A stretch of 64,000 nt of DNA. Source: an uncultured Candidatus Saccharibacteria bacterium (GTDB lineage Bacteria > Patescibacteriota > WWE3 > 9FT-COMBO-53-11). A program made the translations under genes and the position numbers. Where the stretch lies: assembly GCA_964348395.1 (NCBI GenBank), contig CAYGCK010000002.1:12729-76728 (forward strand), in the 5' to 3' direction. This document shows, piece after piece, positions 26,301 to 64,000 of this stretch. The notes beneath the pieces are model-generated. The model was given only the letters and a program-made list of their open reading frames with translations, ran no database searches and was not told the DNA's origin. Numbering within the stretch: the stretch's first letter is position 1; each line of letters opens with the position of its first letter.

Positions 26301-26301
26301 T

Positions 26302-26856
26302 TCAATCCTGTTCCATCTCGCGTCGTAGTTTTTGAATAGTTCGATAGAGAATCGTTCCCACATTAGTCTCCGAAAGCCCCATCACCTTGGCTATCGCTCG
26401 GTTGGTCAACCCCTCGTAGAACTTGAGGTAGATTATCTCGCGTTCCCGCTCCTCTATCTTAAAAAGTGCTCGTCCGAGCCACTCCTTTTCCTCCTCCTCT
26501 TGAAGTTCCTCAAGCTGAGCCGGGAGGTCACCTTTGAGAGGAGGTCTCTCCTCTACGCTAACCTTGCGTTTACCCCCTTCCTTTCGCAGGTGGTCGAAGA
26601 ATGTGTTTCTTGCTATTGTGAAAAGCCACGCGGAGAAAGGAATCCCCTGCCATTGAAAGCTGCCTAAACCGCCTAAAGCTTTTTCGAATGTTTCGGAGGT
26701 TAAATCTTCGGCGAGATCCGTATCTGCCAGCCTTGAGGTAAAGTAACCTCTGACTTTCGGTGCGTAGTGCTCCCACAGCACACCAAAGGGGCGGTTGGGG
26801 CCGCTTTTGATCTTTTTGGCGGCTTCGACAAGCCTTTCCTCCTCTTTTATGTCCAT
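26302..26856 (-). CDS. RNA polymerase sigma factor, ECF (sigma-24) subfamily
   Basis: Region 2 (LAEDLTSETFEKA...FSAWLFTIARN) and region 4 HTH (LTNRAIAKVMGLSETNVGTILYRTIQKLR). Confidence 0.85.
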   Translation of the reverse strand: MDIKEEERLVEAAKKIKSGPNRPFGVLWEHYAPKVRGYFTSRLADTDLAEDLTSETFEKALGGLGSFQWQGIPFSAWLFTIARNTFFDHLRKEGGKRKVSVEERPPLKGDLPAQLEELQEEEEKEWLGRALFKIEEREREIIYLKFYEGLTNRAIAKVMGLSETNVGTILYRTIQKLRREMEQD

Positions 26857-27665: not shown

Positions 27666-27802
27666 AATTTGATTATAACCCCAACAGCTGTGACGGCGTT
27701 CTTCTTGTCCCGTTTTTCTTTTTGATGAGACACTGCCGCGCGCCGCCCTTCCTATAAGATTGTATTGCCGAGCCTCCGGTTGCTAGTATTGAAACGGAAA
27801 TT

Positions 27803-28894
27803 ATGCAGGAATTTACAGTGAAGGCCTTAGGATATCTTCTTCTATCGACGGTCGCGACGGGCGCGCTCTATCCGGTTTTTATTAATTTTTTGTACAAATT
27901 TCAGCTCAGGGAGCCTATTAACCCTGACGTTCCGAGAACCCACTTTGCAAAGCAAGGTACGCCGACCGCCGGCGGGTTCCTGCCCGTCTTGGTCTTTCTT
28001 CTCTTGAACCTTATCTTTAACCTAAGCCCCGAGGTCGCGGCTCTGGCGGCGGTTGTGGGGGCTTTGTCCGTTTTGGGAGTGTTAGAGGATCTTTTTAAGA
28101 TCTATCGTCGCTCAAGGTTGCAAAAGACTATTAGGGAGAAAATCGTTCCCATCGTTACCCTCTCCGATTTAACGTGGGACGTCTACAAGCTAGTCCTTTT
28201 CCCGTGGCGCGCTTTTAAAGAAGTTTTTAGAGCGCTCGGTTCGCAGAACGTGGGCGGAGTCGCCCCTTATCAGAAAGTGCTCTTTCAAACCGCCGCCGGC
28301 GCGGCCTTTGCCCTTTGGCATTCTATAGCGAGAGGGACGGAGGTTTGGCTCCCTCTCTTGGGGGTCGTGGATCTAGGATTTTTTTATATTCCTTTGGTTC
28401 TCTTGCTCTTTCTGTTCTTTGTCAACGCCATCTCGGTTACTGACGGTTTGGACGGTTTGGTGGGAGGGCTTTTGGCCTTGGGGTTGACCGCTTTTCTAGC
28501 GATAGCTTTGATTAACGGTCGAGGTGATTTGGCGATCGCGGCGGCTATACTGGTTGGGACGCTCTTCCCTTTTATGTACTTCAATATTTTTCCTGCGCGT
28601 ATTTTTGCCGGCAACGTCGGCGCTTTGGGTTGGGCGGGGGCTTTTATTACCTTGGGCCTTCTTCTTGATCGCTCTATCCTTCTTTTTATAGTTGGAGGGG
28701 TGTTCGTTCTTGAGGGATTGTCTGTTCTAATCCAGGTTGCGGCGGTGAAGTTGAAGAAAGGAAGAGTTTTTTTGATGGCTCCCATCCACCATCACTTTGA
28801 GATGAAGGGGTGGGCGGAGGCCAAAGTCACGATGCGCTTCTGGTTGGCAGGAGCTTTCCTCGCCTTTTTGGGGCTTTTTGTAGCCCTCCTTTAA
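27803..28894 (+). CDS. mraY: phospho-N-acetylmuramoyl-pentapeptide transferase MraY
   Basis: DGLDGLVGG, NVGALG and PIHHHFEMKGW motifs; 10 TM helices. Confidence 0.9.
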   Translation: MQEFTVKALGYLLLSTVATGALYPVFINFLYKFQLREPINPDVPRTHFAKQGTPTAGGFLPVLVFLLLNLIFNLSPEVAALAAVVGALSVLGVLEDLFKIYRRSRLQKTIREKIVPIVTLSDLTWDVYKLVLFPWRAFKEVFRALGSQNVGGVAPYQKVLFQTAAGAAFALWHSIARGTEVWLPLLGVVDLGFFYIPLVLLLFLFFVNAISVTDGLDGLVGGLLALGLTAFLAIALINGRGDLAIAAAILVGTLFPFMYFNIFPARIFAGNVGALGWAGAFITLGLLLDRSILLFIVGGVFVLEGLSVLIQVAAVKLKKGRVFLMAPIHHHFEMKGWAEAKVTMRFWLAGAFLAFLGLFVALL

Positions 28895-28896
28895 TT

Positions 28897-30063
28897 ATGA
28901 TTGCAAAGAGAACGAAGGTTAAACTCTCCTCGCACCATCGACCAGACGTCCCTTTTATAATTGGGGCTTTGGCACTCTTGGCGTTTGGGGTTTTGATGGT
29001 TTATGATTCCTCGGCCGTTTCCGCGGTTGGACTTTTAGGGGGGCAGTACCACTACCTTATACTTCAACTTATATGGGTGGGACTGGGTGTGGCGGGGGCT
29101 TTATTTTTCTACTTCTTGGATTATCACAAGCTCAAAAAAGTCGCCTTTCCTCTTTTTTTGGTGACCGTCGTTCTTCTTGTTCTGGTTCTTCTTCCGACCT
29201 CGATCTCCTACGTTATAAGGGGTTCCCGCAGTTGGCTGGTCTTGCCGCTTCGACTCCCTCTTATTGAAGGGTTTTCTATCCAACCCTCTGAGCTTTCCAA
29301 ACTCGCTCTTATTTTGTATCTGGCGGCTCTTTTTACCAATCAAGGCAGGGGTAGATCTAAAGAAAAGGAAGGCGGCCCAAAGTTTCTTTTTTTTGCCGTG
29401 CCCACTGCGTTAATAGCTGCCCTTATCCTTCTTGAGCCCGATCTTGGAACGGCTGCGATTATAGTCGCTTTGGGATTTGCCGCCTTTTTCTTTGCGGAAG
29501 GAGCGCTTTGGAAGATACTGCTGACTCTACCCGCGGTTTTGGCGGCGGGTGTGGGATTTATCCTTTTGAATCCCAGTCGGCTGGGGAGAATAAGGGCGTT
29601 TCTTGATCCGTCCTCGGATCCTCTAGGCGTGGCCTACCACGTTAACCAAATTCTGATCGCTCTGGGGTCTGGAGGTCTTTTGGGTTTGGGAATCGGGGAG
29701 TCCCGACAGAAGTACGGTTATATACCGGACGTTTCGACAGACGCGATTTTTGCGGTCGTTGGAGAAGAGTTTGGGTTTTTAGGTACTTTTTTCGTGGTCG
29801 CTCTTTTAGGTTTTATTCTTTATCGGGGATTTCTTATCGCCAAACACGCTCCTGACGGGTTTGGACGGGTTCTTGCGGCCAGTATCTCCTCCTGGGTTGG
29901 GCTTCAAGCGTTAGTCAATTTAGGAGCGGTGACCAATATCCTACCCCTCACAGGTGTTCCTCTACCCCTAATATCTTACGGCGGTTCGTCGTTGGTGGTT
30001 TTGCTTTCATCTTTTGGAATACTTTTGAACATAAGTCGGCAAACAGTAAGAAGTAGAAAGTGA
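28897..30063 (+). CDS. ftsW: SEDS-family peptidoglycan glycosyltransferase FtsW
   Basis: ATG at 28897 immediately after the mraY stop. Polytopic; the long ORF from 28810 overlaps mraY and is not used. Confidence 0.8.
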   Translation: MIAKRTKVKLSSHHRPDVPFIIGALALLAFGVLMVYDSSAVSAVGLLGGQYHYLILQLIWVGLGVAGALFFYFLDYHKLKKVAFPLFLVTVVLLVLVLLPTSISYVIRGSRSWLVLPLRLPLIEGFSIQPSELSKLALILYLAALFTNQGRGRSKEKEGGPKFLFFAVPTALIAALILLEPDLGTAAIIVALGFAAFFFAEGALWKILLTLPAVLAAGVGFILLNPSRLGRIRAFLDPSSDPLGVAYHVNQILIALGSGGLLGLGIGESRQKYGYIPDVSTDAIFAVVGEEFGFLGTFFVVALLGFILYRGFLIAKHAPDGFGRVLAASISSWVGLQALVNLGAVTNILPLTGVPLPLISYGGSSLVVLLSSFGILLNISRQTVRSRK

Positions 30064-31184
30064 CTCAAGAGAAAAAACTACCAATTCGTGCGGTCATAAC
30101 GGGAGGTCATCAAGACCCGGCTATCGCCGTTTTGCAGGAGCTGGAGAAGGAGGGTCGATTCGAGTTTCATTGGGTGGGGCAAAAAAATGAGGGGGGACAG
30201 GACGGTCCGTCTTTGGAATTTAGAACCGTAAGAAAGCTTGGCATTCCCTTTTATGACTTAAAAACCGGCAAGCTCTATAAGAGCTCAATTCTGGAGTGGG
30301 TGAAGATACCGTTTGGGTTTTTCCACGCTTTGTATCTGCTTTTTAGGATTAGGCCGCGAGTCGTCATATCCTTCGGCGGCTATATTGCGGCGCCCGTTGT
30401 TTTGGCGGCCTATACCTTAGGGATACCGTCGGTTACTCACGAGCAGACCGTAGTTTTGGGGTGGGCCAACCGCTTCATTTCGCTTTTCGCCAAAAAAATC
30501 TTCGTCTCTTGGGAAGAGTCATTAAAACACTTTCCTAAAGGTAAGACCGTCTTGACCGGTAATCCTGTTCGCCGGGCGGTGTTTGAGAAAAAAGTCAGAA
30601 GATTTGAGTTTAAAAACGACCTCCCAACGGTATACGTAACCGGAGGGAAGCGAGGAGCACACGTTATAAACGAGACGATAAGGGGAGCTTTGTCCACTTT
30701 TCTGGAGCGCTTCAACATCATTCATCAAACCGGCGCGTCTGAGGTTTTTCAGGATTATCAAAAACTACAACTTCTTAAAACCCAGCTCCCCAAAAAATTA
30801 CGGTCGCACTATATTGTTCAGGAGTTTTTTGGCTTGGACGAGATCGGCGCTGTTTTTGCCGCTTGTGACCTCATCGTCGGTCGCGCCGGTGCCAATACCG
30901 TAACCGAGCTAGCCGCTTTAGCAAAACCAGCCGTTCTTATCCCAATTCCTTGGGCTTCTCACAATGAACAGTATTTAAACGCCAAGCTTTTGTCCGCGCG
31001 GGGCGCAGTTTTAATACTCCCCGAGAGCGAGCTCTCCACGACCAATTTTTTGGAGGCGGTTTCTACGATAGTTTCCGATCTAGGTCGTTTCAGAAAGAGT
31101 GCTCGTAGCGCTAAAGGTCTTGTTAAACCCGACGCTGCAAGTCTTATAGCTCGCGGGATTAGGGAGCTGGTAGACTTAAGCTGA
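30060..31184 (+). CDS. murG: undecaprenyldiphospho-muramoylpentapeptide beta-N-acetylglucosaminyltransferase MurG
   Basis: VITGGHQDPAIAV..., GGYIAAPVVLAA and VTGGKRGAHVINE motifs (GT28). Confidence 0.85.
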   Translation: MTQEKKLPIRAVITGGHQDPAIAVLQELEKEGRFEFHWVGQKNEGGQDGPSLEFRTVRKLGIPFYDLKTGKLYKSSILEWVKIPFGFFHALYLLFRIRPRVVISFGGYIAAPVVLAAYTLGIPSVTHEQTVVLGWANRFISLFAKKIFVSWEESLKHFPKGKTVLTGNPVRRAVFEKKVRRFEFKNDLPTVYVTGGKRGAHVINETIRGALSTFLERFNIIHQTGASEVFQDYQKLQLLKTQLPKKLRSHYIVQEFFGLDEIGAVFAACDLIVGRAGANTVTELAALAKPAVLIPIPWASHNEQYLNAKLLSARGAVLILPESELSTTNFLEAVSTIVSDLGRFRKSARSAKGLVKPDAASLIARGIRELVDLS

Positions 31185-31966
31185 TGCGGCTTTTCCCATC
31201 AAGAAGAAGGCTGAAAACGCTTAGACGTTCTCCGAGGTTTTTCATTTCTGCCCCCACAGGTCGCCAAATTGTTGTGCCGTTTCGCCCCGTCTCGACCGTT
31301 TTGATTGTTGTTCTGGCTCTTCTTAGTGTCTTTCTCGCTCTTCGCTCGGATATCTTTCAGGTTAAGGCGCTTGAGTTTGAGCTTGAGGAGATTGCCGATG
31401 AAACCCTTGTGAGACAGCGGGTTATGGAAGAAGTCATGGGCCGAAGTATCTTTTTCTTAAACACCTCAAAAGTCGAGAACTCCATTAAGGGAGATTTCCC
31501 AACCATCAAAGAGGTTATTTTGGAGAAGAAACTTCCCGATGGACTCTACATTGCGGTAAACGTTCGGGTTCCGCTGGCCGTCGTTGAGGATAAGGATGGG
31601 GATAAATTCTTGGTGGATCAGGAGGGTTTTCTTTTTGAAGAAGGTGCCGGAGAGAATCTTCCGGTTATCAAGTTAGGGGGCGATTTTGACGGCGCGGTTG
31701 GTCTTTCTGTAAGTGATAAAGGAGTCCGCTCTTATCTGGAGACGCTCGAGCTTGCTGCGCAGAAAGGTTTTGTGGTTCGTGCTATTTATCTCAACTCTAC
31801 AACGATCGAACTTCGTCTTGAAGGGACGGTGGTTTGGCTTAGCGCTGAGGGAAAAATTTCCTCACAACTTGAGCTTCTGACGAACCTTCTCCAGCGCTAC
31901 AAACTAGGCGGAACGACCCCAAAATCGGTAGACCTTCGCTTCGCACGTCCTGTGGTTAGACTTTAG
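31184..31966 (+). CDS. ftsQ: cell division protein FtsQ/DivIB (POTRA)
   Basis: N-terminal TM then POTRA-like domain. Position between murG and ftsA. Confidence 0.7.
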   Translation: MRLFPSRRRLKTLRRSPRFFISAPTGRQIVVPFRPVSTVLIVVLALLSVFLALRSDIFQVKALEFELEEIADETLVRQRVMEEVMGRSIFFLNTSKVENSIKGDFPTIKEVILEKKLPDGLYIAVNVRVPLAVVEDKDGDKFLVDQEGFLFEEGAGENLPVIKLGGDFDGAVGLSVSDKGVRSYLETLELAAQKGFVVRAIYLNSTTIELRLEGTVVWLSAEGKISSQLELLTNLLQRYKLGGTTPKSVDLRFARPVVRL

Positions 31967-31998
31967 CCCGTACTCCTGCTGCTTATGATATTATTCGC

Positions 31999-33264
31999 TT
32001 GAGAAGTAAATCACGCGCCATGCCCAAAGAAAACATTGTTACAGGGATAGACGTCGGCTCTACCAAAATCTCAACCGTTATCTCCTCCTTATCACCCGAG
32101 AATAAAATCTCTGTAGTAGGGGTCTCAACTGTTCCTTCAAGAGGAATAAAAAAAGGCGTCGTTGTCGATATCGACGAGGCGGTCGAGGCTATAGCCGAGA
32201 GTTTGGAGCAAGCGGAACGTATGGCCGGGTATTCGGTTTCCTCGGCTTTTGTTGCGGTCGACGGGAAGCACATCTCCTCCCTCAACTCCCACGGCGTCGT
32301 CGCGGTTGGCGGTGAGGGGGCAGAGATAGCGGAAACAGATGTAGAGCGGGTGACGGAGGCGGCGCGTGCCGTATCGCTTCCTTCCTCTCGCGAGATCATC
32401 CATGTTTTGCCGCGGGGTTTCACCGTTGATTCCCAAGATGGGATAAAAGATCCGGTCGGAATGAGCGGAGTTCGCATGGAGGTAGAGACAAATATTATCT
32501 CCGGATCAACGACCGTGATGAGAAACTTGGTGAAGTGTATTCAGCACGTGGGGGTTGACGTCGAGGACTTGGTTTTTTGCGGTTTGGCCTCCTCCGAAGC
32601 GGTTCTTTCGGAGACGGAGAAAGAGCTTGGTTGTGCACTGGTTGATATAGGTGGGGAGACCACCCAAATTTTAATTTTTACCAACGGAAGTCCGGTTTAC
32701 GCCGCGGTTGTACCCTATGGAGGACAAAGTATCACCAATGATCTGGCGGTTGGACTTAGGGTATCGCTTGAGGATGCGGAGAGGATAAAACAGAAGCTTT
32801 CGAGCGAATCTTTGGCTAAGCAGGAGGAGAAGAAAGACGAAGTTGATATTTCAGAGTTGGGACTAGAGACTAAATCCATACCTCTTTCATTTGTTGAAAA
32901 CATAATTGAAGCTCGACTTTCCGAGGTCGTAAATATGATAGGGCTTGAGGTTAAAAACTCCGGACAGCAAGGTAACCTTCCCGCAGGTTTGATCATAACC
33001 GGTGGGGCGGTTGAAACCTTAAAACTCAAAGACACGGTTAAAAAACACCTTCGCCTCCCCTTGAGGATAGGGCGTCCCAAAGGGGTTTCCGGATTGATCG
33101 AAGAGGTATCAACCCCCGCCCACTCAACTTCCATAGGTCTTGTTCTTTACGGTTCATACGCAGGTCCTAAGGAGGGGCGCGTCGGATTACCGTCGGTGGA
33201 CCTGCGGCGGGTTTCCCAGGCATTTGGGAGGGTGATAGAATGGGGAAAGAGTTTCCTGCCCTAG
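31999..33264 (+). CDS. ftsA: cell division protein FtsA
   Basis: IVTGIDVGSTKISTVIS actin-fold phosphate-1 motif; VDIGGETT phosphate-2. Confidence 0.9.
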   Translation: MRSKSRAMPKENIVTGIDVGSTKISTVISSLSPENKISVVGVSTVPSRGIKKGVVVDIDEAVEAIAESLEQAERMAGYSVSSAFVAVDGKHISSLNSHGVVAVGGEGAEIAETDVERVTEAARAVSLPSSREIIHVLPRGFTVDSQDGIKDPVGMSGVRMEVETNIISGSTTVMRNLVKCIQHVGVDVEDLVFCGLASSEAVLSETEKELGCALVDIGGETTQILIFTNGSPVYAAVVPYGGQSITNDLAVGLRVSLEDAERIKQKLSSESLAKQEEKKDEVDISELGLETKSIPLSFVENIIEARLSEVVNMIGLEVKNSGQQGNLPAGLIITGGAVETLKLKDTVKKHLRLPLRIGRPKGVSGLIEEVSTPAHSTSIGLVLYGSYAGPKEGRVGLPSVDLRRVSQAFGRVIEWGKSFLP

Positions 33265-33306
33265 TGTATAAAATCCAAGCGTCGTATACTGTCCAAAAGT
33301 ATTCTC

Positions 33307-34362
33307 ATGCGCGTTAAACCACAAATAGAAAAAGCTGCGAACATAAAGGTCGTTGGTATGGGGGGTGCCGGCGGTAACGCCATAAACTCTATGATTAGAA
33401 ACCAGAAGATTCAGGGTGTTGAGTTTGTAGCGATTAATACGGACTCTCAGGCGCTCGCCTCCTCCGATGCCCCAGCTAAGATCCAAATTGGGGAGAAGAT
33501 CACCCGAGGCTTGGGTTCGGGGGGAAACCCGGAGGTTGGTCGCAAGGCCGCAGAGGAGTCCACCGAGATGTTAAAGGATAGAATGGATGGCGCGGATATG
33601 GTTTTTATAACGGCCGGTATGGGCGGAGGAACCGGGACGGGAGGGGGCCCTATTGTTGCGGAACTAGCGAAATCGCTTGGTGCTTTGACCGTCGGTGTCG
33701 TTACCAAACCTTTTGGATTTGAGGGCTCGCGTCGTATGGAAAACGCGGTTAAGGGTATCGAAGAATTGAGGGAAAAGGTAGACGCGCTGATTGTTATTCC
33801 CAACCAAAAACTTTTGGAAATTGTCGAGCGTAACATGTCTATTTTAGACGCATTTCGCCTGGCCGATTCGATTTTGGGACGGGCGGTTCAGGGTATTTCG
33901 GATCTTATTGTTATCCCGGGTTTGGTGAACGTTGATTTTGCTGATGTGCGCTCCATTATGACCAACGCAGGAAGTGCTCTTATGGGGATAGGGGAGGGGA
34001 GTGGAGAGGACAAGGCGGCCACAGCAGCGCGAGCGGCTGTTACTTCGCCTCTACTTGAAGTTTCGGTTGACGGTGCGATGGGAATTCTTCTGAATATTGT
34101 CGGAGGGGGCGACCTTGCTATGCATGAAGTCGATGAGGCCGCCCGACTTATTTCGGAGTCGGCCGACCCCAATGCGGATATCATTTTCGGGGCTTCGATT
34201 GACGAGGAGATGAAGGATGAGATCAAAATCACGGTGATAGCAACGGGGTTTACTCTCGGATCGTCTGAGGGTGGGAGCCCGAAGAAAGAAGAAAGAAAGG
34301 AGGAGTCGGAGGAATCCGACGAGTTCGAGGCTCCGGCTTTCTTGCGCCGAGGTAAACGTTAG
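33307..34362 (+). CDS. ftsZ: cell division GTPase FtsZ
   Basis: GGGTGTGGGPIVAELAK tubulin signature; NTDSQAL; acidic C-terminal tail. Confidence 0.95.
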   Translation: MRVKPQIEKAANIKVVGMGGAGGNAINSMIRNQKIQGVEFVAINTDSQALASSDAPAKIQIGEKITRGLGSGGNPEVGRKAAEESTEMLKDRMDGADMVFITAGMGGGTGTGGGPIVAELAKSLGALTVGVVTKPFGFEGSRRMENAVKGIEELREKVDALIVIPNQKLLEIVERNMSILDAFRLADSILGRAVQGISDLIVIPGLVNVDFADVRSIMTNAGSALMGIGEGSGEDKAATAARAAVTSPLLEVSVDGAMGILLNIVGGGDLAMHEVDEAARLISESADPNADIIFGASIDEEMKDEIKITVIATGFTLGSSEGGSPKKEERKEESEESDEFEAPAFLRRGKR

Positions 34363-46275: not shown

Positions 46276-47118
46276 TTAGGAAGTTTGAAGTTTGGCAATA
46301 AGCGCTGCGCCGGTTGCACCCGCGGCTTGTCCCAACGAGGATTTTAAGATTGGGATGTTCTTACTTTCGGGGTTGGCTATGTGTTCTGCGGCAGATTTTT
46401 TTGCCTCCTTTATGAAAAGCTCATACGCGTCCCCTATACCACCCCCGACAATTACCGCTTGGGGGTCGAGGATATTAACGACGTTGGCGATGATGTGCCC
46501 GAGGTTGGTCCCAAATTCCGCCCAGAGCTTTTGCGCTTCCTTATCGCCCTTTTGTGCGCCTTGGCGGGTTTCGACCGGGTCTTTCCCTAATTTTCTGAAA
46601 AACTTCGCAGAGGCGAGATCCTCTGCTTCCTCATCCCCTCGGAGGTTTAATACCGTGTGTCCAATTTCCGCCCCTCCTCGCCCAACGTAGAGTTTGCCGT
46701 TTATCACCAACCCTCCCCCGAGACCGCTGCCCAGCGTGAGGCCCACGACGTTCTCGAACCCTAAAGCCGCGCCGAGCGCCACCTCTGCATAGGTGAAGGC
46801 GTTAGCGTCGTTGTGGAGAACGACCGAGGCGTTAAAAATCTTTTCCACTTCCTGGGCTAGCGGATAACCCACGAGCTCCGGGAAGTTGGGAGCGTAGTTT
46901 AGAGTCCCGTCTTTTGGCAGCCCCGGTACGCCGACACCTACCTTCTCAACCGCCACCCCCTTCTTTTGAAGGTCCGTTTTTATTTGACCGCATACCTCAA
47001 GAATTTTTCCGGTATTTTGGGGAGTAAGGTCGTAGCGCCCTTCGGCAACTGAGTCGCTGCCTTCCAAAGCTACAAAGTAGGCCTTGCTTGCTCCTATATC
47101 GATTCCTAAGTAAGCCAT
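46276..47118 (-). CDS. ROK/BadF-type sugar kinase (putative glucokinase)
   Basis: MAYLGIDIGASKAYFVAL (phosphate-1), VGLTLGSGLGGGLVINGKLY (phosphate-2), VIVGGGIG (adenosine motif). Confidence 0.75.
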   Translation of the reverse strand: MAYLGIDIGASKAYFVALEGSDSVAEGRYDLTPQNTGKILEVCGQIKTDLQKKGVAVEKVGVGVPGLPKDGTLNYAPNFPELVGYPLAQEVEKIFNASVVLHNDANAFTYAEVALGAALGFENVVGLTLGSGLGGGLVINGKLYVGRGGAEIGHTVLNLRGDEEAEDLASAKFFRKLGKDPVETRQGAQKGDKEAQKLWAEFGTNLGHIIANVVNILDPQAVIVGGGIGDAYELFIKEAKKSAAEHIANPESKNIPILKSSLGQAAGATGAALIAKLQTS

Positions 47119-51003: not shown

Positions 51004-52406
51004 GCGATATCTTGAATCTCACTCTTAAAGAGCTTTCATCCGGGGTAAGAGAGGGACGATTTAGTGCTAGTGAAGTTTTGGAGGAGTTTGCTCGTGAGAT
51101 CGAAAGGAAGGAAAGCAAACTCCACGCTTTCATAAGTATTTTTCTTGAGGAGGCAAAGAAGCGCACAAGGGAAACGAAACGTGGGGGTCGGGGAAAGCTC
51201 TTGGGCGTACCACTCGCCGTAAAGGATAATATCGTAACCCGCGGACTCCGCACGACGGCGGGTTCAAAGATTATAGAAAATTTTATCCCTCAGTACGACG
51301 CAACCGTGGTCTCTAAGCTGCTGGGTGAGGGTGCGATTATTTTGGGTAAAACCAACATGGACGAGTTCGCTATGGGCTCCTCCACCGAAAACTCTGCCTT
51401 TGGGCCGACAAGAAATCCTTACGACCCCAAGCGTGTTCCTGGCGGCTCCTCTGGAGGGTCTGCAGCGGCCGTAGCTTCCCGTATGGTGCCCGCCGCGTTG
51501 GGTACTGATACTGGTGGATCTATCAAGCAGCCGGCGGCGTTTTGTGGGGTAGTGGGGCTGCGACCCACCTACGGGGCGGTGTCGCGTTATGGCGTTATTG
51601 CTTTGACCTCTTCTCTTGACCAGGTGGGGCCTTTGGCTCGCACCGTGGAGGATGTACGCTATCTTTTTTCGGTTATAAGAGGTAGGGATCTTTATGACGC
51701 TACTTCCTGGGAAAACCCAAACCCGACCGAGGGGGTCGAGATTAAAAACCTCCGGGTCGGGCTGCCTAAGGAGTATTTTACGAGCGGCGTTGAAAAGGGG
51801 ATTACCGACCGTATTGGGCAAGTAGCGAAATTTCTTGAAGGCCAGGGCGTTAAGGTTGAGGAAGTTTCTCTTCCGCATACCGAGTATGGAATAGCGGTTT
51901 ACTATATCATCACACCTTCTGAAGTGTCGACGAATTTATCGCGGTTTGACGGCATTCGGTTTGGGTTGCAGGTTCGGCAGAAAGATGTTATTTCTTTGGT
52001 TTCAAAATCCCGAGGGACTGGATTTGGGGAGGAGCCCAAAAGGAGAATTATTCTGGGTACCTTTGCCCTTTCCTCGGGTTACGCCGATAAGTACTACCTT
52101 CGCGCGGCCCGCGCCAGAACGTTAGTGGCGCGCGATTTTGAGCAGGTTTTTAAGAAGGTGGACGCCCTTTTGACACCTACCGCCCCAACAACCGCCTTTA
52201 AAATTGGGGAAAAGAAGGATCCCCTCTCGATGTATATGTCTGATATCTTCACCATTCCGGCGAACTTGGCTGGTTTGCCGGGCTTGTCTGTACCGGTGGG
52301 GGACGTCGGGGGGCTACCGGTTGGTGCGCAGCTTCTGGGACCGAAGTTTTCAGAAAACACGTTGTTTTCTCTCGGCGAGATTGTGGAGGGCGGAACATGG
52401 TCTTAG
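51000..52406 (+). CDS. gatA: Glu-tRNA(Gln)/Asp-tRNA(Asn) amidotransferase subunit A (amidase)
   Basis: Amidase signature GGSSGGSAAAVASRMVPAALGTDTGGSIKQPAAFCG. Confidence 0.9.
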   Translation: MSDILNLTLKELSSGVREGRFSASEVLEEFAREIERKESKLHAFISIFLEEAKKRTRETKRGGRGKLLGVPLAVKDNIVTRGLRTTAGSKIIENFIPQYDATVVSKLLGEGAIILGKTNMDEFAMGSSTENSAFGPTRNPYDPKRVPGGSSGGSAAAVASRMVPAALGTDTGGSIKQPAAFCGVVGLRPTYGAVSRYGVIALTSSLDQVGPLARTVEDVRYLFSVIRGRDLYDATSWENPNPTEGVEIKNLRVGLPKEYFTSGVEKGITDRIGQVAKFLEGQGVKVEEVSLPHTEYGIAVYYIITPSEVSTNLSRFDGIRFGLQVRQKDVISLVSKSRGTGFGEEPKRRIILGTFALSSGYADKYYLRAARARTLVARDFEQVFKKVDALLTPTAPTTAFKIGEKKDPLSMYMSDIFTIPANLAGLPGLSVPVGDVGGLPVGAQLLGPKFSENTLFSLGEIVEGGTWS

Positions 52407-52798
52407 ACTTTCTTTTCGGGAGAAAAGAAAAGAAGGTAGTAAGGACGACCGTGGGGGTGCTCAAGCCCTACGATAGGGATTATATAAAGGGGGAATGGAC
52501 CAGGGTCGAGGAGTTGGTTTCGACCGCCCGTCCTAGCGCTTTTAAGGAAGCGGTTATCTTGGCAGATAAACTTTTAGATTACGCGCTTGCACAAATTTCC
52601 TCGGGCGAGACCATGGGGGAGAGGTTAAAAAACGCCGCACCCGCTTTTTCTCGGGATATTTACCAAGGACTTTGGGACGCCCATAAGGCGCGAAACGCTC
52701 TGGTTCATGAGGCGCAATTTGATTTAACGACCGCTCTGGCAAAGGATGTTCTGGCTAAATTTAAGAAAGGCTTTATGGAGCTGGGGGTCAGAATATGA
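52397..52798 (+). CDS. hypothetical 133-aa protein inserted between gatA and gatB; C-terminal Rx4HE motif (HEPN-like?)
   Basis: GGAGGG RBS 7 nt upstream; overlaps the gatA stop and the gatB start (ATGA). Helical C-terminal half contains KARNALVHEAQF (R-x4-H-E). No confident family assignment. Confidence 0.55.
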   Translation: MVLDFLFGRKEKKVVRTTVGVLKPYDRDYIKGEWTRVEELVSTARPSAFKEAVILADKLLDYALAQISSGETMGERLKNAAPAFSRDIYQGLWDAHKARNALVHEAQFDLTTALAKDVLAKFKKGFMELGVRI

Positions 52799-55960: not shown

Positions 55961-58027
55961 ATGATTTGCCAAAATTGTGGAAAAAGACAAGCGGTTTTTC
56001 AGACCCACCATCTCGTTGATGGTCGGCCCACCATAATTTATCTTTGTGAGGTATGTGCCGAAGAGGTTCGCTCTGGAGGTCGGCGGACCTCGACGCTAGA
56101 TCGTTACGGACGAAACATCTCCGCCTTGGCAGAGAAGGGTAAGCTCGATCCGGTGATTGGGAGGGGGGAGGAGATTAATCGTGTAATCCATGTTCTCTCC
56201 AGAAGAACCAAGAACAACCCCGTTTTGATAGGGGACCCAGGAGTCGGCAAGACCGCAATTGTGGAGGGGTTAGCGCAAAGAATTATTGAAGGCAACGTCC
56301 CAGAACCTTTGCTTGGGAAGAGAATAGTAGCCCTCGATCTTGCTCTTATGCTTGCCGGCGCATCCCACCGCGGGGAATTTGAGGAGCGTATGAAGAAAGC
56401 AATTGAGGAGGTTACCGCTGCCCGTGGTGAGATAGTTCTTTTTATAGACGAGCTTCATACGGTAGTTGGGGCGGGTGCGGCGCAAGGTGCAATCGACGCC
56501 TCCAATATGCTTAAACCCCCGCTTGCCCGAGGTGAGCTCCAGTGTATTGGCGCAACCACACTTGACGAGTATCGACGGTATATCGAAAAAGATGGTGCCT
56601 TGGAACGGCGTTTCCAGCCGGTCATGGTCACGGAACCGACGCAGGGGGAGACCCTCGATATTTTGCGCGGTCTTAGGCCAAATTACGAGGACCATCATAG
56701 GGTGCGTTTAACCGATGGTGCGCTAGGTGCTGCGGTTGAACTTTCCGACCGCTACATTACCGACCGTTTTCTTCCCGATAAGGCCATCGACCTTTTGGAT
56801 GAAACCTCCGCCAAAAAGCGTTTGGAATCCGTCGGTTACACATCTAATAATAAGGCGGATAAAATCTCCGAAGAGCTTACGCGGTTAAAGGGTAAATCAC
56901 GCAAGACCTTGGCCGAAATGGAGCGTATCGAAGAGTTAACCGCACTAAAAGGTGGACAAGTAGATGAGCAGGAGCTTGCGCTTGAGAATATTCCCGAGGT
57001 TACCGCCCAAGACGTTGCTAAAACTGTGTCTAAGATTACCGGGATTCACGTTGAGGATATATCAACCGACGAGAGGAAACGCCTCATGGATCTTGAGAAG
57101 AAACTCCACGAACGGATCGTTGGGCAGGATGAGGCCGTGAAGGCCGTCTCATCTGCCATCAGACGCGCACGCGCAGGGCTTAAGGATCCAAACCGACCGG
57201 TTGGTTCGTTTATCTTTCTTGGTCCAACCGGGGTTGGAAAAACGGAACTTGCTAAGGCTCTTGCCGAAGCGCTTTACGGAGATGAGGATTCGATGGTCAG
57301 GTTGGATATGTCAGAATACGCGGAGCGCCATACCGTCTCTCGGATGATCGGTTCTCCTCCTGGGTATGTGGGGTACGAGGACGCCGGACAACTTACGGAG
57401 GCTGTTCGCCGGAAACCCTTCTCGGTTGTACTTTTTGATGAAATCGAAAAAGCGCATCCCGAGGTCTTTAACATTCTCCTCCAAATTCTGGAGGATGGGC
57501 GTTTGACCGACGCTCACGGACGGACGGTCGATTTCAAAAATACGGTTTTAATCATGACTTCAAATGTTGGAACTAGCGCGATATCTGCTAAGGCGGTTGG
57601 GTTCGGCGAGGGCGCTAAAAAGAAGGATTACGAGGAGCTTAAAGAAGGGCTTCTAGGGGATCTCCAAAAGAGCTTTAGACCAGAATTCTTAAACAGAATA
57701 GACGAGATAATTGTCTTTCACCCTCTAAGTGAGAAGCATGTTAGGAAGATCGCAGACATTCTCATCGAAAGGAGCAAAAAACTTCTGGAATCCCAAGGAA
57801 TAAGCTTGGACGTAACAAAAAGAGCGCGAAACTTTCTTGCCGAGCGCGGTTTTGATCCAGAGCTAGGAGCCCGTCCTCTAAAGCGCTTGATCCAAAAAGA
57901 GATAGAAAACCCAATTTCAAACGGAATAGTTTCGGGTGACTACAGGAAAGGGGACACGGTTGGATTTGACTTTACGGGTGGTAAAACAACCTTTCAGATC
58001 AAAAAGCGCGTCCCCGTAAAGGTTTAG
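55961..58027 (+). CDS. clpC: Clp/Hsp100 double-AAA+ unfoldase (ClpC/ClpA-like) with N-terminal ClpX-type C4 zinc ribbon in place of Clp_N repeats
   Basis: N-terminus [11 protein letters not shown]...[11 protein letters not shown]1 Walker [17 protein letters not shown]2 Walker [23 protein letters not shown] loop. 688 aa. Confidence 0.8.
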
Positions 58028-59072: not shown

Positions 59073-59147
59073 TGGTGGCCCCAAGGGGAATCGAACCCCT
59101 GTTTCCGCCTTGAAGGGGCGGTGTCCTATCCGTTAGACGATGGGGCC
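59073..59147 (-). tRNA. tRNA-Glu (anticodon TTC)
   Basis: Reverse complement GGCCCCATCGTCTAACGGATAGGACACCGCCCCTTCAAGGCGGAAACAGGGGTTCGATTCCCCTTGGGGCCACCA. Confidence 0.85.
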
Positions 59148-59148
59148 A

Positions 59149-59223
59149 TGGTAGGTCCGGAGGGAATCGAACCCTCGACACCCGGCTTAAAAGGCCGGTG
59201 CTCTACCACTGAGCTACGGACCT
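59149..59223 (-). tRNA. tRNA-Lys (anticodon TTT)
   Basis: Reverse complement AGGTCCGTAGCTCAGTGGTAGAGCACCGGCCTTTTAAGCCGGGTGTCGAGGGTTCGATTCCCTCCGGACCTACCA. Confidence 0.85.
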
Positions 59224-59656: not shown

Positions 59657-59941
59657 ATGGGGGAGAAACAGAGCATTTCACGAGCCCGTCTCAAAATCTA
59701 CGGCCGGGTTCAGGGGGTGGGCTTTCGCTTTTATGTTCACCGCAAAGCCTCGGCAGTTGGTCTTGGGGGATGGGTTCGAAATGCAAACGGGTTTGTAGAG
59801 GTCGTTCTGGAGGGTCCCCCGGAAAAAGTGAAGGTGTGTATTGAGGATTGCCGTAAGGGTCCCATGTTTTCCAAAGTCGATCATATCGAAACGAATGAGG
59901 AGAAACCAACCGGAGAATTTGCGCGTTTTGAGATAAGATAA
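59657..59941 (+). CDS. acyP: acylphosphatase
   Basis: IYGRVQGVGFRFYV and GWVRNANGFVEVVLEG signatures; 94 aa. Confidence 0.85.
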   Translation: MGEKQSISRARLKIYGRVQGVGFRFYVHRKASAVGLGGWVRNANGFVEVVLEGPPEKVKVCIEDCRKGPMFSKVDHIETNEEKPTGEFARFEIR

Positions 59942-60041: not shown

Positions 60042-61466
60042 ATGGCTGAATCTCAGACGTACGTATTTCGAAAAGAGGAACTCAAACTCAACCCTTACAT
60101 CTTCCGAACCAACGACATAAGAGGGATTTACGAGAAAGATTTTGACGACGATGACTCTCGAGCTATTGGCCAAGCCTACGGAACTTGGCTCCAGGAGAAA
60201 GGAAAAGACAGTGTGGCCTTGGGTATGGATAATAGGATAACCTCCCCTAAAATCCACGCCACGGTTTTGGAAGGACTCATGAAAACCGGTATCAAAGTTT
60301 ACGATCTCGGGCTCGTAACCACCCCAATGAGCTATGCTGCTCCCGTTCTTGTTCCGTGCGGTGGGGCTATGATGGTCACCGCCTCCCACCTTTCATCGGA
60401 GTGGAACGGTATCAAGCTGTCCATAGAGGATCGAACCATTTTTGGGGATGAGATCCAGGAGGTTAGGAAAATCGCCGAGCGAAAAAACTTTAAGGAGGGA
60501 AAGGGATCCTCGGAGAAATTTGAATTTGCCGCCATGTATGAGGCGGCGCTTCAGAAAAGTATTGAGGAGCTAGCGCAGATCTCAAAAGAACCCAAAAAGC
60601 GCACGCTTAAGGTGGTAGTTGACTCGGGTAACGGAACTGCGGGGCTTTATGCCCCCAAACTTCTGCGCGACATCGGGTGTGAGGTAATAGAGATGCACTC
60701 GAGGCTGGACGGTACCTTTCCAAACCACGGTCCCGATCCAACGTTGGGGCCCAACATGCTTGAGGCGATAAACCGCGTAAAAAAAGAGAAGGCGGATTTG
60801 GGGATGGTTTTTGATCCTGACGCCGATCGCGTCAACATCTGTGACGAAGAAGGCTTTGTTCTTTGGGGGGACGGCATTCTTCTTCTTTTTGCTAGAGACA
60901 TTCTGTCTCGCCACCCCCGAACCGAGATTCTTTATAACACCCAGTGTTCGCCCGCGGTCGAGGAGGACATAGTTGCCCACGGCGGAATACCTGTGATGGT
61001 GCCAACGGGACACTCGCTCGTTTTAAACGAGCTGAGGTTTTACGGGGGTGTTTTTGCGGGGGAGTACAAGTGTCACTTTTACTTCTATGACCACTACTAC
61101 GGTTTTGACGATGCCCTCTACGCCGCGCTCAGGCTCGTTAAAATTCTGGAAAAAACCGATAGACCTCTTTCGCAGATTATGTCAGACGTTCCTTTTTACC
61201 ACGCTTCCGGGGAAGTGGAGATTCCCGTTCCTGACGAGAGAAAAATGATGGTTCAAGAGAAAGTAAAAAACGAGCTTAGGAAGCGTTATTTTGTTAACGA
61301 GATGGACGGGGCGCGAGTTAAGTTCCGGGATATGCCAAACACCTGGGGACTTATGCGGGCTTCCGGAACTTTTCCTAAAGTTGAGGTTTTTTCGTGGGCA
61401 AAGGAAAGACAGCACATGGAAAAAGCCAAGGAGATTCTTCTTGGCGAGGTGCAAAAGCACCTCTGA
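60042..61466 (+). CDS. alpha-D-phosphohexomutase (phosphoglucomutase/phosphomannomutase)
   Basis: Active-site Ser loop VTASHLSSEWNGIKL; metal-binding MVFDPDADR; sugar-binding loop. Confidence 0.8.
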   Translation: MAESQTYVFRKEELKLNPYIFRTNDIRGIYEKDFDDDDSRAIGQAYGTWLQEKGKDSVALGMDNRITSPKIHATVLEGLMKTGIKVYDLGLVTTPMSYAAPVLVPCGGAMMVTASHLSSEWNGIKLSIEDRTIFGDEIQEVRKIAERKNFKEGKGSSEKFEFAAMYEAALQKSIEELAQISKEPKKRTLKVVVDSGNGTAGLYAPKLLRDIGCEVIEMHSRLDGTFPNHGPDPTLGPNMLEAINRVKKEKADLGMVFDPDADRVNICDEEGFVLWGDGILLLFARDILSRHPRTEILYNTQCSPAVEEDIVAHGGIPVMVPTGHSLVLNELRFYGGVFAGEYKCHFYFYDHYYGFDDALYAALRLVKILEKTDRPLSQIMSDVPFYHASGEVEIPVPDERKMMVQEKVKNELRKRYFVNEMDGARVKFRDMPNTWGLMRASGTFPKVEVFSWAKERQHMEKAKEILLGEVQKHL

Positions 61467-61489
61467 AGGTGATAAATAGTAACTTAAGT

Positions 61490-62008
61490 ATGGCACACAT
61501 AACCGTCCGAAAAATTGAAGAAATGAAAGAGGTCTGTTTGGAACCTAAGGCAATAGAGTTGAAAGACTCCGACGAAGCCTACTGGGTTATACGGGAGCCC
61601 GGTCGCAATCTAACCATCTTCGCCCCTTACAGACTCGGTCGAGAATTTCCAAAAACATATGGACACTTTCACGTACCTCCTTACGAGGAAACCTACAAGG
61701 TCCTGTATGGCAAGGCGGCTTTTCTTATTCAAAAAATGGAAGGAGAGAAGGTTTCGGAGGTTCAATTCAAGGTCTTGGAGGAAGGTGAAAGCTTTACCGT
61801 CCCATTGGGCTTTGGCCATACCATGCTTAATTTAGGCGACGACTATGTAATTACTATGGACGACCATGATCCCAAACACTTTGAAAACGATTACTCCTTG
61901 ATTAAGAAACTGCGAGGATTTGCTTACTACATAGTTGAAAAGGATGGGGGGTGGGAATCCATACCCAACGAGAACTACAAAAACCTCCCACCGCTTAAAA
62001 GCGACTGA
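61490..62008 (+). CDS. cupin-type (archaeal-type) glucose-6-phosphate isomerase
   Basis: TYGHFHVPPYEETY aligns with the Pyrococcus cPGI metal site TKGHFH...E; second His in PLGFGHTMLNLGDD; about 172 aa. Confidence 0.75.
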   Translation: MAHITVRKIEEMKEVCLEPKAIELKDSDEAYWVIREPGRNLTIFAPYRLGREFPKTYGHFHVPPYEETYKVLYGKAAFLIQKMEGEKVSEVQFKVLEEGESFTVPLGFGHTMLNLGDDYVITMDDHDPKHFENDYSLIKKLRGFAYYIVEKDGGWESIPNENYKNLPPLKSD

Positions 62009-62009
62009 T

Positions 62010-62204
62010 ATGGCAGGTAACGAGTTTCAGGAATACTCTCCGAAAGAGGAGGAGCGCGTCAAACGACGCGAAAAAAAGCGCAAACCTTCAATGGGGGTAT
62101 CCGGGCGGAGTGTCCTAGAGCTTGCGAGACTTATAAAACTGCGGGGTGAAGAGGGGACAAAGAGAAAAAAATCGAAGCGCAAAAAGAAAAGGAAGAAGAA
62201 ATGA
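62010..62204 (+). CDS. small highly basic protein (64 aa; C-terminal KRKKSKRKKKRKKK)
   Basis: Starts 2 nt after the cPGI stop and overlaps the next gene start (ATGA). Function unknown. Confidence 0.4.
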   Translation: MAGNEFQEYSPKEEERVKRREKKRKPSMGVSGRSVLELARLIKLRGEEGTKRKKSKRKKKRKKK

Positions 62205-63634
62205 GAACGCTTATATTTCTTGACGAAATTGGTTTTTCGGACTCTATAGCCTTTGGTGAAGAAGCGGTCCTTTTGGGGAACCTCACCAAAGCTGCAGTTC
62301 CCGTTTCTCCGGCGTTTCTTCTGCCAACCCAGGCTTACGGTGAATACGTCTCCGCGGCTGCCGTAAAGGACGTTCTGGACCGCGGCGGTTTGCGAGGTGA
62401 AGAGGAGGTTCGTCAAACTCTCCTCGCCTCTGCTATCCCCAGGCGTCTCGGGGAGGAGATAAAAAGTTTCTACCGTAGTCTTTCTGGGCCGCGTAACGTT
62501 CACGTTTCGGTTCGTTCTCCATCCCGTGAGGTCAGGGCGGATGGCCCCGAGTCTCTTGTTTCCTCCATCAGGCAAATTTGGGTTGATCACATACTCTCGG
62601 TTCTCGGTCGCGACGGAAATGTTTTTAAGGAATCACTGCCGATTATTGTTCAGCAGATAACGGACTCGAGTTTGTTTGGCACGCTTTACACCTCTGATCC
62701 GCACCTTGGTAGTCTGGATCTTTGCCTGGTTGAGGTTGTCCACAAAGATGGTGTGGAGAAGATTGTTTTTGAAAAAGGAACCGGCAAGCTTGTTAGGAGA
62801 AATGTCTTTGGAAGTGCGGAGGAAGCAACCGGGGTTGGAGGGTTTGAGGCCTTGGCTTCGTGGGCGAGGAAGATCGAGCAAATACTCGGTGGTGCGTACC
62901 GCGTAGGGTGGAATATTTACCAAGGGGAAGTAGCTTTTGAGAAGGTGGGGCGGATGTATATTCCGCAGGCTCGTGCGTCGACGCTTGAACTTTGGCTCGA
63001 CGCGGAGTCGGGCGATCTAAATAAGTCGAAGGGGGTTTCAGGATTTGTTGCAAGAGACGGCGCGCTCGCTACTCGCTTGGCGCGGGATTTTCCCGGGCAC
63101 CGAGTACTTCTACTTCTTGACTCCGCGCATACCGAGCAGCTTGAGCACTTTAGGCAAGGGAGACACAAGCTAAACCTTAAAAACCTTCATGTGGTTCTGC
63201 CGCCGATAAGAACCGTCGATGGACTTCGGGAGATAAAGCGTTACCTTTCGGGAGAGCGGGTTCAGCGGGGGCCAAACCTTGAGTTCTTTTTCAGAGCGCA
63301 TTACCCCTCAAACATCGTTCTTCTTGAGCGCTTCGTAGAGATTGGAGTCGACGGTGTTTTGTTCGATGAGGGCGGTCTGTCTAGGGGGTTTTTGGGCGTT
63401 GATGAGGATGTCGAGCCCGATGAGTCTATAACCTGGGCTATTGGCGAAGCGGGAAAGAAATGTCAAAGAGCAGAGGTTGATATGCTTTACCTTAGCGAGC
63501 AAGCAAGACCTTGGGTGCTTTTAGAACTTGCCAAGGGGGGTGCAAAGGGAGTCGTAGTTCCCCAGAAACTTAAAAGCCAATTCGTGGAAACGCTTCAGGA
63601 GGCGGATCGCGAAAGATTGACTTCCGGTGATTGA
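62201..63634 (+). CDS. PEP-synthase/PPDK-like protein: N-terminal ATP-grasp (PPDK_N) + C-terminal PEP-utilizers-like segment, lacking the central phosphohistidine domain
   Basis: N-terminal ...AVLLGNLTKAAVPVSPAFLLPTQAY resembles the PpsA nucleotide-binding domain. C-terminal GVDGVLFDEGGLSRGFLGVDED resembles the PEP-utilizers TIM-barrel motif. 477 aa versus about 790 for PpsA. Confidence 0.5.
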   Translation: MRTLIFLDEIGFSDSIAFGEEAVLLGNLTKAAVPVSPAFLLPTQAYGEYVSAAAVKDVLDRGGLRGEEEVRQTLLASAIPRRLGEEIKSFYRSLSGPRNVHVSVRSPSREVRADGPESLVSSIRQIWVDHILSVLGRDGNVFKESLPIIVQQITDSSLFGTLYTSDPHLGSLDLCLVEVVHKDGVEKIVFEKGTGKLVRRNVFGSAEEATGVGGFEALASWARKIEQILGGAYRVGWNIYQGEVAFEKVGRMYIPQARASTLELWLDAESGDLNKSKGVSGFVARDGALATRLARDFPGHRVLLLLDSAHTEQLEHFRQGRHKLNLKNLHVVLPPIRTVDGLREIKRYLSGERVQRGPNLEFFFRAHYPSNIVLLERFVEIGVDGVLFDEGGLSRGFLGVDEDVEPDESITWAIGEAGKKCQRAEVDMLYLSEQARPWVLLELAKGGAKGVVVPQKLKSQFVETLQEADRERLTSGD

Positions 63635-64000
63635 ATTTATCGATTCCCTTACTATCTTCGCAAGAGACGTCGGTTTATCGCTCGGCTATCCCGGGGTTGC
63701 GCTCGCCGCTTTCCTGGAAAATTTCTTTCCTCCCATACCTTCTGAGGTGGTATTTCCGTTCTTTGGGTTTGTTTCGGCGGGCGGTGGGTTGAATCTCTTC
63801 CTCGTTGTCGCCTCCGGTAGTTTAGGAGCTCTGGCGGGAGCTTTGTTTTGGTACGGATTGGGATCTGTATTGGGTCGTGCCAACTTAAAAATTTATATCG
63901 AGCGTTTCGGTAAATATCTCCGTCTTGGCTACGAGGATATCGAACGCGCCGAGCGGTGGTTTGAACGATACGAGGCGCCAGCTGTATTTTTTGGTCGACT
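63627..64000 (+). CDS. DedA/SNARE-associated family membrane protein (3' end beyond window)
   Basis: GTG at 63627 overlapping the upstream stop. GYPGVALAAFLENFFPPIPSEVVFPFFGF is the DedA signature. Confidence 0.7.
   Translation, partial: MIEFIDSLTIFARDVGLSLGYPGVALAAFLENFFPPIPSEVVFPFFGFVSAGGGLNLFLVVASGSLGALAGALFWYGLGSVLGRANLKIYIERFGKYLRLGYEDIERAERWFERYEAPAVFFGR

Follow-up and report, generated by a model that had tools for sequence, protein, structure and literature searches.

A reduced relative of PEP synthase without the swivel phosphohistidine domain in a conserved hexose-phosphate gene block of WWE3 Patescibacteria

Introduction

Phosphoenolpyruvate (PEP) synthase, PpsA, and its relative PPDK are built from three domains, namely an ATP-grasp domain (PPDK_N), a swivelling domain that carries the phosphohistidine (PEP-utilizers) and a PEP/pyruvate-binding TIM barrel (PEP-utilizers_C). 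Splitting and recombination of domains occur in this superfamily, as HpeHI, phenylphosphate synthase PpsAB, CreHI and rifampin phosphotransferase show. Two-component dikinases exist, and every characterised member of the dikinase superfamily, these included, requires the swivel His (PMC12167813). Here, we describe a protein of 477 amino acids (aa) that is related to PEP synthase (PEPS) at both of its ends and in which this domain is missing. It is encoded at positions 62201-63634 on the plus strand of a 64,000-nucleotide stretch of Patescibacteria DNA (the window, meaning the whole stretch that was analysed), where it is preceded by the genes for an alpha-D-phosphohexomutase of the phosphoglucomutase/phosphomannomutase (PGM/PMM) family, a cupin-type phosphoglucose isomerase (cPGI) and a basic protein of 64 aa. 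The window is contained in the NCBI contig WVZC01000267.1 (GCA_011772635.1), where the four proteins are deposited as NIT04357-NIT04360 and three of the four are annotated as "hypothetical".

The first two genes of this block belong to known families. For phosphoglucose isomerases (PGIs) of the cupin type (PF06560), structures from P. furiosus and T. litoralis have been solved, and Jaffe et al. 2020 found PF06560-type enzymes scattered over groups of the Candidate Phyla Radiation (CPR), where they form a sister clade to the archaeal ones (PMC7304191). CPR genomes mostly have no recognisable hexokinase and phosphofructokinase (PFK), and the existence of divergent, undetected substitutes has been left open (PMC7304191).

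Results

The homology of the 477-aa protein to PpsA/PPDK lies at its two ends: residues 2-143 match the start of the PEP synthase ATP-grasp domain, and residues 311-405 match positions 615-709 of 784, which belong to the PEP/pyruvate-binding barrel, with 9dae as a match in the PDB (E 8e-13). Unlike PpsA/PPDK, however, the protein is about 300 residues shorter, and it scores far under the equivalog cutoffs (TIGR01418, 56.6 bits vs a cutoff of 739.75; NF005057, 55.6 vs 598). What has been deleted is the swivel phosphohistidine domain: there is no PF00391 match in the protein, the whole domain is gone in the alignment, and none is seen in the AlphaFold2 (AF2) model, which comprises two domains only (pLDDT 80). 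A local hidden Markov model (HMM) of the swivel domain, which finds it in 119 of the 165 PEPS-like proteins retrieved, gave no hit in the 477-aa family. Alignment and model thus predict that a PEP-synthase-type TIM barrel follows immediately on an ATP-grasp domain. The N-terminal domain (residues 1-255; 62201-62965, plus strand) is modelled as a reduced PPDK_N-type ATP-grasp fold with an eroded nucleotide site, and the C-terminal domain (residues ~260-477; 62978-63634, plus strand) as a compact eight-stranded TIM barrel that derives from the PEP/pyruvate-binding domain and has lost its canonical ligands. The recombined members of the superfamily (HpeHI, PpsAB, CreHI and rifampin phosphotransferase) differ from this in that they keep the swivel His domain, in cis or on a partner subunit, together with an intact nucleotide site, and in that their substrate-binding domain is another one, with no TIM barrel of the PEP type.

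These results bear on a previous sequence-only reading of the window, which had singled out the block. Its four plus-strand open reading frames (ORFs) are present as it described them, and it was right in ruling out a canonical PEP synthase for the 477-aa protein. The alternative that it had considered, a rifampin-phosphotransferase-like protein with a hidden His domain, is contradicted by the profile searches, the AF2 model and the swivel HMM. Its assignment of the C-terminal segment to a PEP-utilizers-like domain is not supported, since this segment is predicted to be the TIM barrel (PEP-utilizers_C), and its description of the protein as lacking the phosphohistidine holds for the swivel domain but falls short of the full extent of the loss, because both remaining active sites are eroded as well.

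This erosion was evaluated at 13 canonical PPDK/PEPS positions, which were read from MAFFT alignments of the 477-aa family with intact PEP synthases (P0125, P0072, P0205-7). On the basis of PPDK mutagenesis and structures, and in PPDK numbering, we take the nucleotide site to consist of K22, R92, D321, E323, Q335 and R337, and the PEP site of R561, R617, the Arg of LGxRG, E745, N768, D769 and C831. The 477-aa family keeps one or two of these 13 positions. In the nucleotide site, the equivalent of R92 (R105) is the only residue kept throughout, and the ATP-binding Lys (K22) is replaced by an invariant Glu across the family; in the PEP site, none of the canonical residues is kept. Most of the lost positions are now variable or deleted within the family, and the loops containing SxxAEDxPxxSFAGQ and LLRxEF...NPMLGxRG have been excised. 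The Arg of the PEPS-specific PFVRT motif persists as invariant R337. Because the swivel domain is deleted, the loops are excised and 11-12 of the 13 residues are replaced, the protein is predicted to be unable to run the phosphoryl relay from ATP via His to pyruvate, and as judged from sequence and model it would not be a dikinase.

Members of the 477-aa family were identified in two ways. A word-indexed search returned 17 clusters of 470-478 aa with 45-52% identity, and an exhaustive profile search added three more divergent full-length clusters of 483-510 aa. In the profile search, the family is set off by a gap after its last members, with E values going from 1e-117 to 1e-37. The family occurs in seven GTDB species representatives, all of them metagenome-assembled genomes (MAGs) of WWE3/Patescibacteria. 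Among 27 full-length sequences (470-510 aa, 33-52% identity), 43 residues are invariant. In two pairs of genes with unsaturated dS (0.61 and 0.80), dN/dS was 0.041 and 0.043, and by domain it was 0.05 for the N-domain and 0.03-0.04 for the C-domain. By these sequence comparisons, the gene is under strong purifying selection in both of its domains, which argues that the protein has acquired a new constrained role. In the literature, we found no report of His-less or truncated PEP synthases in CPR bacteria, and the family is an undescribed reduced variant of PEP synthase.

With respect to the source of the DNA, the MAG has been named 'Candidatus Saccharibacteria bacterium', but the homologues of the 477-aa and the 64-aa proteins as well as the syntenic block are all from Patescibacteria of the WWE3/Katanobacteria type. 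The Saccharibacteria label thus is probably wrong or very coarse.

The loss of catalytic residues was also seen among the nearest database relatives outside the family. No swivel-domain match was obtained in 24 of 143 aligned nearest relatives (P0023-P0165), and the 119 swivel-bearing ones have the catalytic His in only 46 cases and a median of 5 of the 13 canonical residues, counts that rest on a large automatic alignment, in which misalignment may have lowered them. A few His-less relatives (P0158, P0118, P0027, P0080 and P0085) keep 9-13 of the 13 positions, and these may be split or trans-acting dikinases.

The gene order PGM - cPGI - small protein - ~475-aa protein is kept in every locus that was examined, including those of the divergent sub-clade L011/L020. 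In most WWE3 loci, the block is flanked by an acylphosphatase gene upstream and a DedA gene downstream. The acylphosphatase gene, which in the window lies at 59657-59941 on the plus strand (94 aa; PF00708 at 80.7 bits), is found directly upstream of PGM, or with a DUF72 gene between the two, in L003, L005, L007, L009, L010, L011 and L020. The flanks of the L011/L020 sub-clade differ from the usual ones: upstream there is a P-type cation ATPase gene, the stop of which overlaps the start of the acylphosphatase gene, and then DUF72. In L011, a gene for a PfkB-family sugar kinase (6927-7862) overlaps the 3' end of the PEPS-like gene. The DedA/VTT-domain membrane protein of the window is encoded from 63627 to 64000 on the plus strand, where the gene runs off the window (VTT_dom, 30.7 bits on the partial product). 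Its GTG start at 63627 overlaps the stop of the 477-aa gene; the protein has 209 aa in the full contig, and a complete gene was called in L007.

A comparable arrangement is found in a sister lineage of the Patescibacteria, where an intact PEP synthase holds the equivalent genomic slot. This protein of 750 aa (P0205, P0206) has three domains and all catalytic residues, and its gene stands in the order PGM ... PEPS - enolase - TP_methylase - VTT/DedA - LexA, such that DedA follows two to three genes downstream of PEPS. The same slot is occupied in this lineage by a reduced protein of 465 aa, P0078, which together with P0034 makes up a second, tiny family of His-less PEPS-like proteins (463-465 aa, retrieved as profile hits) in which two or three of the 13 sites are kept. 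The P0078 locus reads PGM - HAD - PMI-type cupin - SIS-type PGI - ... - [465 aa] - enolase - TP_methylase - VTT/DedA - LexA. P0078 and P0034, which are uncharacterised, resemble the 477-aa family in their two-domain architecture, in similar deletions and losses of catalytic residues, and in the type of neighbourhood, with PGM, a hexose-phosphate isomerase and DedA. Unlike the 477-aa family, they come from a different clade of three-domain PEP synthases (P0205-P0207), have kept the ATP-binding Lys, and lie beside enolase and a SIS-type PGI without the 64-aa basic protein. The nearest relatives of P0078 are the 750-aa PEP synthases P0205 and P0206, and because its similarity to P0205 (E 7.5e-79) is much higher than that to the WWE3 family, its reduction would be independent of that in WWE3. 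A metagenome scan for further relatives of P0078/P0034 gave pattern matches, none of which was confirmed.

Two additional observations concern this sister-lineage locus. Its cupin was considered as an orthologue of the cPGI and rejected, since it belongs to the PMI-type family PF01050 and BLASTP aligns it with E 0.004 over 56 residues only. The ~540 bp between the SIS-type PGI gene and the gene for the 465-aa His-less protein (L021, 5398-5937) contain no ORFs other than two odd ones on the minus strand (78 and 88 aa, rich in Gly, Arg and Ser), and this segment might be non-coding or carry an RNA gene.

Wherever the gene for the small basic protein was found (in the window 62010-62204, plus strand, 64 aa), it is located between the genes for the cPGI and the PEPS-like protein. 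Its C-terminus reads KRKKSKRKKKRKKK, with K or R in 13 of the 14 terminal residues. The tiny Lys/Arg-tailed protein noticed in the sequence-only reading is real, as a codon-position test on 12 orthologues shows: differences amount to 2295 at position 3 vs 1290 and 1004 at positions 1 and 2, and 44% of the differing codons are synonymous in frame vs 6-7% in shifted frames. This pattern marks the ORF as a genuine gene under purifying selection. A profile built from four orthologues retrieved 32 clusters of 49-73 aa, all from WWE3/Patescibacteria, which share the core YSPKExERExRRxKKRxPxMxISGRSV..LA..I. The K/R tail varies in length from 2 to ~16 residues, and therefore the poly-Lys run is not the conserved feature of the family. 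In the AF2 model (pLDDT 73), the protein forms a two-helix core, with helices 11-24 and 35-63 linked by the conserved loop, and no globular fold; it has a net charge of about +12 and not a single His. Searches of the PDB and Pfam with the profile gave nothing significant, only chance-level matches to MPP6 (E 0.09) and CODH (E 0.37). The protein thus constitutes an orphan family, an unannotated conserved small gene.

The possibility that the small protein, with its charge of +12, docks in an ATP cleft acidified by the Lys-to-Glu exchange received no support from net charge: the 477-aa family is near neutral overall, and the net charge of the N-domain ranges from -8 to +3. An RNA element in place of the small ORF was discarded: an Rfam scan yielded nothing besides two minus-strand tRNAs (59073-59223), and the codon test favours coding. 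The K/R tail is encoded by a purine-rich tract, AAGAGAAAAAAATCGAAGCGCAAAAAGAAAAGGAAGAAGAAATGA (62160-62204), which also provides a Shine-Dalgarno-like AGGA/GGAAG just 5' of the ATG of the 477-aa gene, and for this reason the composition of the tail may partly reflect translational coupling. As to the start/stop overlaps that had been reported for these genes, the stop of the small ORF does overlap the start of the 477-aa ORF (ATGA), but the cPGI stop (62006-62008) is separated from the ATG of the small ORF (62010) by a 1-nt gap. Promoter-like and terminator-like sites at the block were not more frequent than in shuffled sequence.

The two genes at the head of the block are of ordinary, known kinds. 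The PGM/PMM-family protein (60042-61466, plus strand, 474 aa; annotated at NCBI as phosphomannomutase, NIT04357.1) matches Pfam PGM_PMM_I, II and III at 98, 90 and 66 bits and domain IV weakly, at 14.9 bits vs a cutoff of 23.1. It shares with the alpha-D-phosphohexomutases (PgmG, archaeal GlmM, PMM/PGM) the four-domain architecture, the catalytic Ser, the metal loop and the phosphate-binding loop, and its translation contains TASH (phospho-Ser), DPDADR (metal loop), GEYKCH and RASGT. It differs from them in that it stays below every NCBIfam equivalog cutoff (PgmG, GlmM, ManB), its best matches being PgmG (357 bits vs a cutoff of 600) and archaeal GlmM (320 vs 439), such that no specific equivalog, and no specificity for glucose, mannose or glucosamine, is assigned.

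The isomerase (61490-62008, plus strand, 172 aa from the ATG) was identified as a cPGI in the sequence-only reading, and this identification is borne out. It passes the PF06560 cutoff with 72.2 bits vs 20.7, as a member of the family to which its orthologues in the other loci also belong, and matches the cPGIs of P. furiosus and T. litoralis in the PDB with E 3e-11 to 3e-8. The motif TYGHFHVPPYEETY is present, and H59, H61, E67 and H110 align with the metal ligands His88, His90, Glu97 and His136 (P. furiosus numbering), all four being invariant in four WWE3 orthologues. The objection that the sequence-only reading had itself named, metal ligands lost on alignment, therefore does not apply. Among the positions that we take, from the P. 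furiosus PGI structures, to contact the substrate (Thr71, Thr85, Gly87, Tyr99, Tyr152, His158 and Tyr160), the protein keeps T42, T56, G58, Y69 and Y135 as the equivalents of Thr71, Thr85, Gly87, Tyr99 and Tyr160. It thus shares with the P. furiosus and T. litoralis enzymes the cupin fold family, the four metal ligands, the catalytic Glu (equivalent to Glu97) and most substrate-contact residues, but its N-terminus is ~20 residues shorter, one loop is shortened, and Tyr152 and His158 are replaced by His126 and Asn133, both invariant in WWE3; furthermore, its host is a bacterium of the CPR. The presence of a cPGI in this group is not new, as the family had already been reported there (PMC7304191). 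Given the family membership and the intact catalytic motifs, the PGM/PMM protein and the metal-dependent cPGI most likely interconvert glucose-1-phosphate, glucose-6-phosphate and fructose-6-phosphate.

The block had further been tied to a ROK kinase (46276-47118) and to a glycan island in the same window, and we reject both links on the grounds of distance and of the housekeeping genes in between. About 13 kb separate the ROK kinase from the block, with genes for PolX, LemA, an M48 peptidase, GatCAB, PolA, a Clp ATPase, L19, RNase HII, two tRNAs and a protein with an RNA recognition motif. The glycosyltransferases at 1-20 kb are ~40 kb away, and the dcw cluster, a ribonucleotide reductase, a sigma factor and isoleucyl-tRNA synthetase intervene.

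Other parts of the window have features of their own. The segment 1-20515, which is the glycan island and is unrelated to the block, carries at least seven glycosyltransferase genes (GT1/GT4/GT2), among them those for two large fusion proteins of 732 aa (GT2+GT4) and 885 aa, followed by a gene for a DUF4012 protein. The division and cell-wall cluster at 24531-34362 encodes a penicillin-binding-protein transpeptidase, an MraY-type GT4, FtsW, MurG, FtsA and FtsZ; a class II-like ribonucleotide reductase that has a TSCPD domain comes next. An ORF of 133 aa without a Pfam match (52397-52798), which was also called in L007 and L008, lies between the genes for the GatA amidase and GatB and overlaps its neighbours at starts and stops; it holds the place of GatC, but is longer than a typical GatC. 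Finally, a Clp/Hsp100-type double-AAA protein of 688 aa (55961-58027) starts with a CxxC...CxxC motif (...LCEVCAEE) and not with a classical Clp N-domain.

Discussion

We consider it probable, though by no means settled, that WWE3 (Katanobacteria-like) Patescibacteria have at this locus a conserved neighbourhood of central-carbon genes in which the 477-aa protein is an in-place reduced and repurposed PEP synthase. The argument for reduction in place is that the WWE3 order of PGM, hexose-phosphate isomerase, PEPS-like gene and DedA repeats the pattern of the sister lineage. The gene would thus descend by position from a genuine three-domain PEP synthase, from which the swivel phosphohistidine domain would have been deleted and several ATP-grasp and TIM-barrel loops excised, and in which 11-12 of the 13 residues of the nucleotide site and the PEP/pyruvate site would have been replaced. 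A central-carbon neighbourhood with a reduced PEP synthase is also a simpler reading than the non-canonical sugar-activation route that had been envisaged for the block, because the synteny matches the Patescibacteria order PGM - hexose-phosphate isomerase - PEP synthase - (enolase) - DedA.

What the protein does at present is a more tentative matter. It could quite possibly be a non-dikinase protein with a ligand-binding or a regulatory/scaffold role, which we infer because no new, uniformly conserved catalytic constellation has replaced the old sites, and because the family motifs E390, Y430 and VEPDES are lost in the divergent members. Such a protein might bind a phosphorylated metabolite via the barrel-mouth residues R337, T338, D340, P369 and N371, and the residues R105, Q151/Q152, E186 and K192 of the old nucleotide cleft might serve this binding as well. 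The lineage-specific 64-aa basic protein, whose gene is translationally coupled to that of the 477-aa protein, may be its partner in this.

The same residues can be read in favour of a new enzymatic activity. On the catalytic face of the barrel, in the loops that follow strands 4-6, the invariant polar residues form a cluster; dN/dS of ~0.04 is typical of an enzyme; and the barrel superfamily, with pyruvate kinase, the HpcH aldolases and citrate lyase beta among its members, has a versatile catalytic repertoire. Linkage of the gene to PGM and PGI is tight, and in L011 the PEPS-like gene overlaps that of a PfkB sugar kinase. Thus, the reduced barrel, perhaps with the remnant of the ATP-grasp domain, could act on a hexose phosphate or on an alpha-keto or phospho acid, and it could cover the hexokinase or PFK step, for which the gap in CPR genomes leaves room (PMC7304191). 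We deem this unlikely, though deserving of serious attention. A kinase that uses ATP at the old site is improbable because the ATP-binding Lys, both pairs of Mg ligands and the Gln and Arg of the nucleotide site are gone, and their positions vary within the family. The barrel, for its part, has lost its canonical metal ligands and the acid/base Cys, and the candidate new ligands E390, Y430 and VEPDES are not conserved in the divergent P0018-P0020.

The precedent of the two-component dikinases (PMC12167813) raises the question whether the protein is one part of a split PEP synthase that, like HpeHI or phenylphosphate synthase, obtains its swivel His domain in trans from another polypeptide. This might apply to some His-less relatives, such as those with 9-13 of the 13 positions kept, but for the WWE3 family it is very unlikely: with one or two positions left, the site of neither half-reaction is intact, the local HMM detected no separate swivel-domain ORF in the 64-kb window, a further 10 kb of the contig or 19 related loci, and the adjoining 64-aa protein has no His at all. 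The loss of the swivel domain and of catalytic residues also resembles decay, such that the gene could be a pseudogene or a functionless relic that is merely syntenic. We regard this as scarcely credible, given that 27 sequences, with identities as low as 33%, have an intact reading frame of constant length, that dN/dS is ~0.04 in both domains, and that the confident fold prediction (pLDDT 80) points to a maintained structure.

Several points weigh against our preferred explanation, a PEP synthase that was reduced in place and then repurposed. The WWE3 gene and the PEP synthase gene of the sister lineage are taken as positional orthologues on the basis of shared neighbours and not of a phylogeny, and the hexose-phosphate isomerases of the two lineages are non-homologous. 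The residue mapping depends on MAFFT alignments of very divergent sequences and on the roles assumed for PPDK/PEPS residues, and the geometry between the two domains is uncertain in the AF2 model (pTM 0.51). The search for a stand-alone swivel domain covered ~74 kb of a genome of probably ~1 Mb. Furthermore, the binding or regulatory role is our inference only, and R337, T338, D340, N371 and, mostly, D389 on the catalytic face of the barrel would fit a new enzymatic activity equally well.

That a second lineage shows a parallel reduction suggests ongoing selection for a non-dikinase function of the PEP synthase scaffold. In its boldest form, this would mean that the reduced ATP-grasp and TIM-barrel protein, with the 64-aa polybasic protein, is a new enzyme or regulator of hexose-phosphate metabolism that has arisen from PEP synthase by convergent evolution, on at least two occasions, through deletion of the swivel domain; we regard this as improbable, and give similarly little credence to the candidate roles that come with it, a substitute for PFK or hexokinase, or phosphoryl transfer with a polyanionic donor. 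If the 477-aa/64-aa pair did provide the missing upper-glycolysis activity, this would bear on how CPR bacteria process hexoses.

Metabolic reconstructions of CPR/Patescibacteria take hits to PPDK_N or to "PEP synthase" as evidence for the interconversion of PEP and pyruvate. The 477-aa family, and apparently many of its nearest database relatives too, would be false positives in such reconstructions. In this family, a central-metabolism enzyme has lost nearly all of its catalytic apparatus and yet shows purifying selection like that on an enzyme, as would befit a pseudoenzyme or a repurposed scaffold. It thus offers a tractable case of a repurposed central-metabolism scaffold.

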